Source of the DNA: Gemmatimonadota bacterium
GTDB lineage: Bacteria > Gemmatimonadota > Gemmatimonadetes > Gemmatimonadales > GWC2-71-9
Assembly: GCA_039591615.1 (NCBI GenBank)
Contig: JBDHDH010000027.1
Span: 6,585-70,584, forward strand
Reading direction: 5' to 3'
DNA: 64,000 nt
The position numbers and the translations under genes are program-made. Under the pieces are notes generated by a model. That model saw only the letters and a list, made by a program, of their open reading frames with translations. It was not told the DNA's origin and made no database searches. Positions 1 through 5,384 of the stretch are shown here, one piece after another; within the stretch, counting starts at the first letter, position 1; each line of letters begins with the position of its first letter.

Positions 1-1
1 G

Positions 2-526
2 GCAATGACGGCCCATGCCATGTCGGGTGAACGGGAACGGTGTCTCGCTGCCGGGATGACCAGCTACTTGCCAAAGCCATTCAAGCCACACGAACTGTTT
101 GCTGCCGTTGAAGGTTGGGGCGCCACGGTCGCCTCCAAACAACAACTTCCCGATTCGCCTGAAAGCGAGGTGGTGGTGGATCTGGAAGAGTTTCGCCGAT
201 CGATGCGAGAGGCCGGCGTGGAGGACGCGGTTGGCACGCTGTTGGAGACGTTCCTGCAGGACGCGCCCGGGCGTATGCAGGCATTGGGCCGGGCGGCGGC
301 AACAGCCGACACCTCGGCTCTCGAAGCGTCCGCCCACGCGTTCAAGTCGGCGGCCCGTACCATTATGGCTCGTCGGCTCGCCGACCTCTTACAAGAACTC
401 GAAGACGCGGGCGAGCGTGGAGACACTGAGAAAGGGGTCAGCCTGATGCCAGTCGTCGAGGAAGCGTATACCGCGGTCATACAGTATCTCGAAGCCGCCA
501 TGCCTCGGGAGCCGGCGTATGGATAA
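2..526 (+). CDS. C-terminal end of a hybrid sensor kinase / phosphorelay protein: tail of a receiver domain followed by an Hpt phosphotransfer domain (5' end outside window)
   Basis: The frame is open to the left window edge. A receiver-end signature (YLPKPF) is followed by an Hpt-type helical domain with the phospho-His motif SAHAFKSAARTI. Confidence 0.75.
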   Translation, partial: AMTAHAMSGERERCLAAGMTSYLPKPFKPHELFAAVEGWGATVASKQQLPDSPESEVVVDLEEFRRSMREAGVEDAVGTLLETFLQDAPGRMQALGRAAATADTSALEASAHAFKSAARTIMARRLADLLQELEDAGERGDTEKGVSLMPVVEEAYTAVIQYLEAAMPREPAYG

Positions 527-3601: not shown

Positions 3602-4723
3602 ATGACAGGTACTCAAACCCCACCGGTCCCGACGCTCATCGTAGACGATGAACGTCCCCTTCGTGAGGCCCTCGCTCGGTACCTCAGCAGAGTAGGGTTC
3701 CGAGTGACGACCGTCGATTCCGGTCAAGCCGCCCTCGAGCACCTCCAGGCGAATGATGTCTCGGTGATGCTCCTCGACATCCGGATGCCGGGCATGAGCG
3801 GCGTCGACGTTGTGCCTCAAGCACTGGACATAGATCCAAATCTCGCCATCCTGATGCTCACTGCCGTGGCGCACGCATCCAGCGCCACCCGTTGCCTCCA
3901 GGGCGGGGCGATGGATTACCTCACAAAACCGGTCGAACTCACCGAGCTGCTTGGCGCGATAAACCGCGCGCTCCGCCAGCGCGAAACAATGATGCAGAGC
4001 CGCGAGATGACTAACTGGTTGCATCGAGAATTGGTGCGTCGGGGCCACGAGTTTAGCTGGGAGCAGCATAGGCAAGGGAAGATCACCCTGGCGACGCTCG
4101 AAACCATGGTCAACACACTCGAGGCCAAGAATCCGTATCTGGTCGGGCACTCCGCCCGAGTCGCCGCGTTTGCCACGACCATCGCGGATGAGCTGGGACT
4201 TCCTGCGAAGGAACTCGAGCACATCAGAATCGCCGCCCGCCTACACGACCTGGGTAAGGTCGGCATCCGCGAGGAAGTGGTGAACAAAGAGGGACCGCTT
4301 ACTGAAGAGGAATACGAGCACATACGAGAGCACTCGGCGATCGGGTTCCAGATCCTCGACCCGTTGCCGGACATCGGACCAATCGCTGGTTACGTACGCA
4401 GCCATCACGAGCATTGGGACGGCAGCGGATATCCCGACGGCCTGCGCGGCGAAGATATCCCTTTAGGCGCACGGATCGTATGCGCTGCGGAAGTATACGA
4501 CGCTCTAACGAGCCCTCGACCCTACCGTGACACATTTTCGAGCGAAGCCGCGCTCGAGCGTATGGAACAACTGAAGGGCACCGTACTCGACCCCGGGATC
4601 CTGGAAGCACTCGAGGCAGCGCTGAAGCGACAACGGCACATGCCGCCGGCCGAGGACCCGCCCGCGACACCCCAGGTCGCAGCGACTGCGGAGAGAGATC
4701 ATGGCAATCGGACACTGGTTTAA
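3602..4723 (+). CDS. response regulator with HD-GYP domain (putative c-di-GMP phosphodiesterase, RpfG family)
   Basis: REC motifs (LIVDDE, LLDIRMPGMSG, LTKP) plus HD-GYP motifs (GHSARVA, RLHDLGKVG, HHEHWDGSGYPDGL). Confidence 0.9.
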   Translation: MTGTQTPPVPTLIVDDERPLREALARYLSRVGFRVTTVDSGQAALEHLQANDVSVMLLDIRMPGMSGVDVVPQALDIDPNLAILMLTAVAHASSATRCLQGGAMDYLTKPVELTELLGAINRALRQRETMMQSREMTNWLHRELVRRGHEFSWEQHRQGKITLATLETMVNTLEAKNPYLVGHSARVAAFATTIADELGLPAKELEHIRIAARLHDLGKVGIREEVVNKEGPLTEEEYEHIREHSAIGFQILDPLPDIGPIAGYVRSHHEHWDGSGYPDGLRGEDIPLGARIVCAAEVYDALTSPRPYRDTFSSEAALERMEQLKGTVLDPGILEALEAALKRQRHMPPAEDPPATPQVAATAERDHGNRTLV

Positions 4724-5384
4724 GCTTCAGCACCTGCCCCACGCACCGCCATTCAGGCCACGCTTCTGGGCCTACTGCATTGCGGCATACCTCATGCCAA
4801 TCATCGTTCAGATCGTGTTGCCCGACGAACCGGGCACGACCGACGAATTGGTATGGCTCGTCACGTTGGCACCAGCGTTCCTGCTATCGCTTCATTATGG
4901 TCTCAGAGGATCTTTGATGGGCCTATTGGCAGGGACCATCTTGCTGATCGTCGTACAGGTAATCGTCGCACTCAGATTCACTCCGGACGACTGGCACGTG
5001 ACGGTCCCCATCTACATTGCCTACGGATCGTTGACCATCACCGTGGGCTGGCTCTCCGAGGAGCTCCATGTCTTCTATGGGCGCGCGCTCAAGAACGAGC
5101 GATTGGCGAGCATCGGGGAGTTCGCCGTCAGCGTGCAGCATGAGATCAACAACGCCCTTTTCGCCATTACGGCGGAGAGCCAGTTTCTGCTCGCGGGTCC
5201 CGGTCTCGCAGAGAGTCAGCAGGCGGCAGTGAAGAACATTTACGAATCAGGCAAACGCATCACGCGTACGGTCGAGACGCTGACGAGTCTCGCCACTGCG
5301 CCCACGAGCACATACCTCGATGACTTGAAGATGGTCGATCTGCAAAAGGCGGAGACGAAGAAAGTCGCCCGCATGCTCTCCTAG
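4701..5384 (+). CDS. membrane protein with histidine-kinase DHp (HisKA-like) domain but no ATPase domain
   Basis: 227 aa. About four TM helices are followed by the H-box SVQHEINNALFAI. The ORF stops ~70 aa later and I see no N/G1/G2 boxes. It overlaps the upstream gene by 23 nt. Confidence 0.6.
   Translation: MAIGHWFKLQHLPHAPPFRPRFWAYCIAAYLMPIIVQIVLPDEPGTTDELVWLVTLAPAFLLSLHYGLRGSLMGLLAGTILLIVVQVIVALRFTPDDWHVTVPIYIAYGSLTITVGWLSEELHVFYGRALKNERLASIGEFAVSVQHEINNALFAITAESQFLLAGPGLAESQQAAVKNIYESGKRITRTVETLTSLATAPTSTYLDDLKMVDLQKAETKKVARMLS

Follow-up and report, generated by a model that had tools for sequence, protein, structure and literature searches.

Near the start of a 64,000-nt stretch of DNA from a Gemmatimonadota soil bacterium (contig JBDHDH010000027.1; hereafter the window), within a conserved Gemmatimonadota operon, lies a gene (gene 2) for a PilB/GspE-type ATPase that ends in a response-regulator receiver (REC) domain. 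Comparison with homologues places the protein in a widespread and uncharacterised clade, apparently monophyletic, whose members are orphan extension-type ATPases bearing a C-terminal receiver; the constant feature is an orphan ATPase-REC embedded in signalling genes. The reading we favour, with a probability of about 0.55, is that a phosphorelay ends on the motor's own receiver and that the motor works with a platform and a prepilin peptidase encoded elsewhere. The putative wiring from phosphorelay to motor is well supported by gene order and residue conservation, and the weakest link of the reading is the assumption that platform and peptidase are encoded elsewhere. An earlier note on this DNA had described a phosphorelay-wired 'mini' pilus or secretion module; what it observed was confirmed, and its interpretation held in part.

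The ATPase-receiver protein and its clade

Pfam assigns residues 177–558 of the gene 2 product to T2SSE (2.9e-125) and residues 577–690 to Response_reg (3.1e-27), together with an MshEN domain (9.9e-14); the receiver scores 95.4 bits against a PF00072 cut-off of 30.2. The ATPase has Walker A and B motifs, Asp box, His box and tetracysteine zinc motif of the PilB/GspE superfamily, and the receiver has an acidic pocket, acceptor Asp, Thr and Lys. T2SSE and Response_reg thus occur in a single polypeptide, as first read from the sequence, and the MshEN-T2SSE-REC architecture recurs in all 120 homologue clusters among the matches listed (54–80% identity). Residue conservation was scored in an alignment of these 120 listed cluster representatives, at the Walker A, Asp box, Walker B and His box motifs, the four zinc Cys and the receiver pocket with D626, T656 and K678. 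The Walker A Lys, the Walker B Glu, both His-box His, the four zinc Cys and the receiver residues D582, D583, D626, T656 and K678 are invariant in 120/120; D581 is Asp in 119/120, and the remaining positions of each motif are near-invariant.

The AlphaFold2 (AF2) model of the protein has a predicted local distance difference test score (pLDDT) of 84, with confidence dropping only at the linkers 167–177 and 565–572; the second of these is the flexible linker before the receiver, and the model indicates that the receiver is probably tethered flexibly to the ATPase. In Foldseek comparisons the nearest structures were PilF/PilB (42–44% identity, TM-score 0.86) and GspE (37–45%), with the PilT retraction motors at about 25%. 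Because the nearest folds are PilF/PilB and GspE rather than PilT, and because the tetracysteine motif is invariant, gene 2 is predicted to encode an extension-type PilB/GspE-like motor. The fold is that of the type IVa pilus (T4aP) ATPases PilB/PilF (Geobacter metallireducens 5TSH, Thermus thermophilus 5OIU) and of GspE/EpsE, the type II secretion system (T2SS) ATPase (Vibrio 1P9R, 4KSR, 4PHT). With these proteins it shares 37–45% identity over N2 and the C-terminal ATPase core, the Walker A/B motifs, Asp and His boxes, the tetracysteine zinc site and an N1-type domain.

It differs from PilB and GspE in its C-terminal receiver and in belonging to a separate clade. It also falls below both equivalog cut-offs, with 500.2 bits against 630.25 for TIGR02533 (T2SS GspE) and 481.1 against 675.65 for TIGR02538 (T4aP PilB). 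In NCBIfam and by structure it is best matched by GspE, PilB and PilF. Source databases name the homologues generically (PilB-like/CheY-like, 'TadA', 'T2SS/T4P/T4SS family'). Assignment to the Tad/Flp ATPases TadA/CpaF was ruled out by the zinc motif and the N1 domain.

The T2SSE-REC fusion is genuine and no artefact. Near-identical contigs (99.8%, from other metagenomes) span the domain and gene junctions: L067 is collinear with the window across the T2SSE-REC junction (L numbers denote loci pooled from a genome scan, a metagenome scan and protein look-ups), and in L068 and L069 the collinear stretch begins inside the REC region and runs past the junction between REC and gene 3. This argues against a frameshift behind the fusion, the point for which a check had been proposed. 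These contigs were found via gene 3 and end no further upstream than the window. In L067 the ATPase gene is in pieces because of two frame-breaking deletions relative to the window (123 nt, 702–824; 80 nt, 2068–2147), and L066 shows an in-frame loss of 51 nt within the receiver (window 2490–2540). The deletions in L066 and L067 are either gene-inactivating population variants or assembly errors.

In a neighbour-joining tree of the ATPase cores, all C-terminal-REC proteins fell into one clade, separate from the PilB group (pilB-pilT-pilC) and the GspE group (gspD-E-F); this monophyly is provisional, since the tree carries no support values. The only N-terminal-REC ATPase recovered (L124) lies outside the clade and has a platform gene 27 nt downstream. 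Nested within the clade are two exceptions, L014 with a split ORF and L084 with a NUDIX domain instead of the receiver. The NUDIX domain of L084 (8069..10354) is fused in the receiver's place on a sister branch, and in two further loci (L073 3097..3564, L074 6154..6606) a gene that looks NUDIX-like by eye in translation directly follows the ATPase-REC gene, so that the link between the C-terminal-REC clade and a nucleotide hydrolase is a recurring one.

Other members carry TPR, GAF or double zinc ribbon domains or a long N-terminal extension. On two chromosomes labelled 'Terriglobia' (L010 9920..13507, L012 9917..13252) the ATPase-REC has about 450 additional residues with TPR at the end, and the next gene in L010 encodes a large Ser/Thr kinase with TPR (Pfam); outside Gemmatimonadota the same motor may thus be wired differently.

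Phosphorelay and c-di-GMP genes around the ATPase

Gene 1, cut by the window's edge, matches Hpt in Pfam (1.3e-12, residues 80–160) behind a C-terminal fragment of Response_reg (residues 2–37). Its full-length relatives, of 1142–1236 aa, read PAS-PAS-HisKA-HATPase_c-REC-REC-Hpt, and through them the gene is recognised as a hybrid kinase (HisKA-HATPase_c-REC-Hpt, with conserved His) of which only the REC end and the Hpt fall inside the window. All 13 aligned Hpt modules adjoining ATPase-REC genes carry the His (AHxxKS) without variation.

Within the core Gemmatimonadota clade, as delimited on the neighbour-joining tree, an Hpt module lies at most 25 nt from the ATPase gene in 11/11 loci. Nine of the eleven carry it at the end of a PAS hybrid kinase; L009 and L020 encode a stand-alone 119-aa Hpt downstream, whose gene shares 4 nt with the ATPase stop. 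In L154, a twelfth locus, a stand-alone Hpt gene is placed between those for kinase and ATPase. Some loci are minimal, consisting of kinase and ATPase-REC only (L007, L008, L064) or of ATPase-REC and Hpt only (L009, L020), and there the ATPase receiver is the sole non-kinase receiver on offer.

This gene order would be expected if the ATPase receiver were the terminal acceptor of a multistep phosphorelay, and gene adjacency together with the invariant Hpt His supports a link from Hpt to the ATPase receiver; we infer that the receiver is phosphorylated by the neighbouring Hpt. The proposal that the motor ATPase is itself a phosphorelay output, putative as it is, has therefore gained strong comparative support, with the Hpt adjoining in every core-clade locus. 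Neighbourhood conservation, suggested as a check, was found in part: the Hpt-ATPase-REC unit is kept in the core clade, but the pilin pair described below only in some lineages.

In other loci the genes upstream are likewise signalling genes: CheA, CheB, extra hybrid kinases, single receivers, REC-HD-GYP and REC-GGDEF. In L063 (1..6472) and L065 (1..6437) the kinase and ATPase-REC pair closes a long signalling cluster in the order CheA, CheB, REC-GAF-PAS hybrid kinase, REC-HD-GYP (L063 only) and two single receivers, a layout resembling a chemosensory pathway with a non-flagellar output. In two related loci (L011, L013) and one metagenomic locus (L070), REC-GGDEF replaces the kinase and SecDF then follows.

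The earlier note had also seen a cyclic di-GMP (c-di-GMP) layer in the operon. Gene 5 encodes a response regulator of the RpfG type, with Response_reg (1.2e-27), HD_5 (2.4e-38, 132 bits) and both HD and GYP motifs in the translation ('RLHDLGK', 'HWDGSGYPDG'). It is predicted to be a c-di-GMP phosphodiesterase and is probably a second branch of the same phosphorelay. A REC-HD-GYP gene stands at the same position in L003 and L151-153, and upstream of the kinase in L001, L005 and L063; the gene 5 position is kept in the closest relatives only, and HD-GYP or GGDEF receivers recur around the family. A second REC-HD-GYP gene in the window, outside the operon (20634..21749, +), is 63% identical to gene 5 over 340 residues and looks like a recent paralogue.

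Gene 6 matches HisKA (2.9e-7), with the H-box HEINN and about four transmembrane segments, and Pfam finds no HATPase_c domain in it; the gene downstream is convergent (5508..6146), leaving no room for a catalytic domain. This DHp-only form is kept in L003 and L151-153, and in L001 the membrane module is fused to REC-GGDEF. Gene 6 may act as a phosphatase or as a phosphotransfer element.

Direct binding of c-di-GMP by the N-terminus of the ATPase through the motif of MshE was considered and rejected. The motif was scored as a tandem RLGxx(L/V/I)(L/V/I)xxG(L/V/I)(L/V/I)xxxxLxxxLxxQ over 22 positions, and it is absent from gene 2 (8/22); the maximum in the C-terminal-REC family is 10/22, and 25 of 70 canonical PilB-type control loci reach at least 18/22, the best 22/22. 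Gene 2 thus belongs to the same N-terminal domain family as MshE of Vibrio cholerae (Pfam MshEN) but, unlike it, is without the tandem 24-residue c-di-GMP-binding motif. The comparison shows that the C-terminal-REC clade has lost the motif. Of the c-di-GMP layer, then, the REC-HD-GYP component stands, whereas the ATPase itself is not predicted to read c-di-GMP in the known way. A reasonable reading is that phosphorylation replaced c-di-GMP as the direct input of the motor in this clade and that c-di-GMP turnover is a parallel output of the same pathway.

The pilin cassette, the missing machine and the rest of the window

Gene 4 encodes a type IV prepilin. Its short basic leader ends in MNRRG|MTFVE, with Gly at −1 and Glu at +5, and is followed by a hydrophobic alpha-1 (MNRRG|MTFVELMIVITILGIV); TIGR02532 scores 28.9 bits against a cut-off of 16.3 and N_methyl 1e-6, in line with the bona fide cleavage motif reported before. 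The protein has zero cysteines and a Pro at mature position 22. The family profile matches the N-terminal helix of solved type IV pilins (Geobacter PilA-N 4.7e-16, PilE 1e-13, GspG 4.6e-12), and the family, one of full-length pilins, counts 237 representative clusters at E ≤ 1e-10.

The product of gene 3, which precedes it, crosses the membrane once (helix at about residues 43–64), with its N-terminus in the cytoplasm and a 95-aa alpha/beta domain in the periplasm; AF2 predicts this domain, with pLDDT >90 for residues 70–150, to consist of a long helix, a sheet of three strands and a C-terminal helix. The protein has no match in Pfam, NCBIfam or PDB sequences, Foldseek returned nothing under E = 0.1, and detectable relatives are few. 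The idea that it is a disguised pilin was rejected as unproven: its stretch 'YRDSTGTLPxxLE' recalls the GspG alpha-beta loop, but hhalign of gene 3 against the gene 4 family gave a probability of 0.25% (E-value 0.25), and no conserved Gly(−1)/Glu(+5) was found among its homologues.

Homologues of gene 3 always stand directly upstream of the pilin gene, whether or not the ATPase is present, and the two genes are always paired with a 4-nt overlap. This cassette follows the ATPase in the window, L003, L151-153, L005/6, L150 and L154, so that the order kinase, ATPase, membrane protein, pilin is held in six lineages, down to 59% identity in the ATPase and 40% in the pilin, with genes that overlap or lie about 5–31 nt apart at the junctions. 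It also occurs with no ATPase or kinase in the contig (L157 6751..7688, L158 6810..7717, L159 257..1194) and is lacking in L001, L007-9, L020 and L063-65. Because genes 3 and 4 are found alone and are missing from many family loci, they form a mobile two-gene cassette, which we take from this distribution to be an independent, accessory unit and no defining part of the system. The earlier picture of a self-sufficient 'mini' pilus module was accordingly given up, since the pilin pair is present in some lineages only and can also stand without the ATPase. Divergent family members have small genes downstream that were considered as pilins and rejected; they are Nudix, MGMT-like, glyoxalase and MarR genes.

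The genes of a complete pilus or secretion machine were not found. Searches of all window ORFs of at least 50 aa with E. coli GspF, HofC, GspD, HofQ, GspO, HofM, GspL/M/C and HofN/O revealed no platform, secretin or peptidase gene, while the same queries do recover such genes in control loci. Pfam scans of the 40 largest remaining window ORFs gave no T2SSF, Peptidase_A24, Secretin or PilM/N/O, these ORFs being ordinary housekeeping, efflux and signalling genes. Both lines of search thus bear out the reported absence of platform, secretin and peptidase from the 64 kb. The earlier note had overlooked a second, orphan prepilin of the GspH/FimT family at 23149..23652 (−), beginning MRRGITILEML and scoring 24.8 bits against a PF12019 cut-off of 21; no other pilus genes were found around it, so pilin-type genes occur at scattered places in this genome.

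Relatives of the operon extend the view upstream of the window. In five related lineages the 6–10 kb upstream hold no machine genes; the remainder of the hybrid kinase plus unrelated genes is all that lies there. In L003 and L151-153 (80% identity) the operon is preceded by a 1142–1164-aa kinase and two small ORFs, and relatives at 63% and 59% ATPase identity likewise have no upstream machine genes. As far as these five lineages can tell, then, nothing is hidden directly upstream. Further upstream in L003 (2654..6190) and L151 (478..3756, −) lie divergent genes for a REC-sigma54 activator, a ParA/FlhG-like ATPase and a sigma-70-family factor, which resemble the end of a flagellar regulatory cluster.

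Neighbours in the pooled loci were scored with the same queries. Platform, peptidase, secretin, PilM/N/O and PilT or a second ATPase were found in 0/26 C-terminal-REC loci within about 10 kb (~377 kb of flanks), whereas canonical ATPases in the same scans had a platform gene in 48/74 loci, mostly within 1.4 kb. Restricted to loci flanked by 2.5 kb or more on each side, the figures were 0/16 for the C-terminal-REC ATPases and 28/36 for canonical ones (Fisher p = 7e-8), and a pilB-pilT-pilC or pilB-pilC context was seen in 0/16 family loci as against 28/36 canonical loci with adequate flanks. The gspF, gspD, gspL/M and pseudopilin context of a T2SS GspE was found neither in the window nor in the 26 family loci. 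C-terminal-REC ATPases thus differ from PilB and GspE also in having no adjacent pilC/gspF, pilT or gspD in the scored loci. The equivalog scores and these contexts together agree with the statement that the gene set is no described T2SS, type IV pilus (T4P), Tad or Com cluster.

The six co-directional genes and their spacing can be read directly from the sequence and agree with the initial description (Table 1). Genes 1 and 2 overlap by 8 nt (ATGGATAA, 519–526), genes 2 and 3 are 5 nt apart (2631–2635), genes 3 and 4 share an ATGA overlap (3115–3118), genes 4 and 5 are separated by 37 nt, and genes 5 and 6 overlap by 23 nt (4701–4723), the size of this last overlap depending on the start codon chosen; on near-identical contigs gene 6 is called with a later start, giving 196 aa. 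Promoter and terminator scans of 1..6400 are uninformative, since their counts match the shuffle expectation, and an Rfam scan of the window returned tRNA-Phe only.

Table 1. Positions of the operon genes, their functional sites and two neighbouring genes in the window
Feature	Position	Strand	Basis
Gene 1, hybrid histidine kinase 3' end (REC end + Hpt)	2..526	+	Pfam
Gene 1 phospho-accepting His, motif AHAFKS	335..337	+	Hpt alignment
Gene 2, 703-aa MshEN-T2SSE-REC ATPase	519..2630	+	Pfam, NCBIfam
Gene 2 MshEN-like/N1 N-terminal domains	about 519..1000	+	Pfam
Gene 2 T2SSE core	1047..2192	+	Pfam
Gene 2 Walker A, GPTGSGKTT	1482..1508	+	sequence
Gene 2 zinc-binding CxxC...CxxC	C-terminal part of T2SSE core	+	sequence
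Gene 2 REC domain	2247..2588	+	Pfam
Gene 2 phospho-acceptor D626	2394..2396	+	alignment
Gene 3, 160-aa bitopic inner-membrane protein, no family	2636..3118	+	AF2, gene context
Gene 4, 149-aa type IV prepilin	3115..3564	+	TIGR02532, N_methyl
Gene 5, REC-HD-GYP response regulator	3602..4723	+	Response_reg, HD_5
Gene 6, 227-aa membrane DHp-only protein	4701..5384	+	HisKA
Membrane-fusion protein gene, after RND transporter	9377..10465
Outer-membrane factor gene, after membrane-fusion protein	10490..12964

Beyond the operon, an AcrB-type RND transporter gene is split into ORFs 6261..7925 and 7907..9301 (−), corresponding to the N- and C-terminal halves, by the loss of 46 nt at 7931/7932 relative to the near-identical L066, L068 and L069, a point where L067 too is interrupted; the other contigs encode an intact 1028-aa transporter. 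The split reflects either a genuine pseudogene or an error of assembly. Further signalling genes lie at 25626..26818 and 37826..39835, namely an AraC-type regulator overlapping a single-domain receiver, and a methyl-accepting chemotaxis protein adjoining a periplasmic binding protein.

Competing readings, precedents and meaning

In the mechanism we favour, the PAS hybrid kinase would sense a signal, and the phosphoryl group would pass from His to Asp to the His of Hpt inside the kinase and then to Asp626 of the ATPase receiver, where phosphorylation might switch the motor by acting on docking, on the ATPase rate or on the state of the hexamer. In parallel, phosphate would also go to the REC-HD-GYP protein, altering the c-di-GMP level, and the membrane DHp-only protein may drain or shuttle phosphate. 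The co-encoded pilin would be a substrate that the motor helps to polymerise, in which case the platform, the prepilin peptidase and any outer-membrane parts would have to be supplied from elsewhere in the genome. We infer the direction of phosphotransfer and the effect of phosphorylation on the motor, as well as the use of a platform in trans and the role of the pilin as motor substrate. A platform and peptidase partner has to be assumed because no machine gene lies near any scored locus. Type IV pilus genes occur in the phylum according to a Gemmatimonadota ecogenomics paper, which gives no split into pilC and pilD.

Several observations weigh against this reading. Machine genes are missing near all 26 C-terminal-REC loci and likewise were not found in L150, L151 and L154, fetched later. 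The pilin cassette also occurs without the ATPase, and most family members have no pilin nearby. Distant members adjoin SecDF, REC-GGDEF, Nudix or TonB-receptor genes or carry TPR, GAF or zinc ribbon domains, and because of these neighbours and added domains a general signalling ATPase fits as well as a pilus motor.

It is conceivable, though we hold it unlikely, that the C-terminal-REC ATPases are no longer filament motors but phosphorylation-controlled hexameric signalling or remodelling ATPases, with the pilin cassette a loosely related neighbour. Machine genes near none of the family ATPases as against 28/36 canonical ones, contexts made up mostly of signalling genes (CheA, CheB, REC, GGDEF, HD-GYP), a clade that tolerates C-terminal TPR, GAF, zinc ribbon and even replacement of the receiver by NUDIX, and a cassette that exists by itself all speak for such a function. 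It is harder to reconcile with the strict retention of the extension-ATPase motifs, zinc Cys and N1-type domain included, and with the cassette lying directly behind the ATPase in six lineages in overlapping or nearly abutting frames. We know of no T2SSE ATPase with a filament-independent function.

A little less probable still is that these ATPases form a separate class of motor that works without a PilC/GspF platform, either building a minimal filament from the pilin and its bitopic partner or doing mechanical work unrelated to pilins, and turned on or off directly by phosphorylation from a phosphorelay or chemosensory system.

We regard it as improbable that the ATPase receiver serves mainly as a phosphate sink or competitor, the real output being c-di-GMP and the motor itself unregulated. 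Many loci do have several receivers per Hpt (single-domain REC, REC-HD-GYP, REC-GGDEF), and HD-GYP or GGDEF partners are frequent; but L007, L008, L064, L009 and L020 hold no other receiver to tune, and a sink would have no need of an intact 570-aa ATPase, whose catalytic residues are nonetheless invariant in the 120 listed representatives. An ordinary T4P or T2SS cluster with its machine genes just upstream, or a receiver joined by an assembly or frameshift error, has a negligible probability and is refuted as far as relatives show: although the window opens inside the operon with its own upstream unseen and the near-identical L067 has its ATPase gene in pieces, relatives at 80%, 63% and 59% show 6–10 kb upstream without machine genes (the remaining part of the kinase, small ORFs, and regulators that are unrelated or divergently transcribed), the fusion occurs in all 120 listed clusters, the breaks in L067 are explained by deletions, and L067-L069 are collinear over the junctions.

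The earlier note did not recognise this gene set as a described system, and that judgement holds for the order with a C-terminal REC; the REC-T2SSE fusion as such has been known since 2016, with an N-terminal REC. Wang et al. 2016 (PMC5013675, Suppl. Table 4) catalogued REC-MshEN-T2SSE proteins, e.g. Geobacter metallireducens Gmet_3473, as well as MshEN-T2SSE-cNMP-binding; MshEN-T2SSE-REC is not in their catalogue. The REC-MshEN-T2SSE proteins resemble gene 2 in having a receiver fused to a PilB/GspE-type ATPase and are also uncharacterised, but they are proteobacterial and their receiver is N-terminal, whereas that of gene 2 is C-terminal (residues 577–690 of 703). Full-text searches of the literature found no paper on a C-terminal-receiver PilB or GspE.

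Receivers that act on PilB in trans offer a closer functional parallel. Stand-alone receivers binding PilB alter motor activity or localisation (PMC13507683; 10.1101/2021.06.11.447907; PMC11181946): DrdR of Xanthomonas campestris binds PilB and raises PilB and PilT ATPase activity (PMC13507683), and PATAN-REC regulators of Synechocystis (PixG/PixE type) bind PilB (10.1101/2021.06.11.447907, PMC11181946). The PATAN-REC regulators and PilG/PilH of the Pseudomonas Pil-Chp system relay chemosensory input to the motor. The underlying logic is shared, in that a phosphorylatable receiver controls an extension motor below a kinase or chemosensory system, and two family loci (L063, L065) begin with cheA and cheB, recalling such chemosensory control of pilus motors. 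In contrast to DrdR, PATAN-REC proteins and PilG/PilH, the receiver of gene 2 is a covalent part of the motor and is putatively fed by a hybrid-kinase Hpt.

The kinase side follows the phosphorelays of ArcB, BarA and TorS, with a hybrid kinase bearing internal receiver(s) and a terminal Hpt, and RpfG-type REC-HD-GYP proteins are a separate output, as is gene 5. Unlike in those phosphorelays, the terminal receiver would sit on a secretion-type ATPase and not on a transcription factor. The gene 2 family is thus an uncharacterised variant of a known principle, the regulation of PilB by receivers in trans.

Sensory switching of type IV pilus motors has so far been studied via weak, transient contacts between free receivers and PilB. 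The natural fusion is more tractable: the acceptor Asp is intact, the Hpt is encoded next door and hundreds of natural variants exist, and phosphotransfer, ATPase activity and hexamer state are brought together on one measurable polypeptide. The family also shows that a whole clade of extension-type ATPases lives apart from platform genes, which means either motors that plug into a shared machine on demand or an undescribed function.

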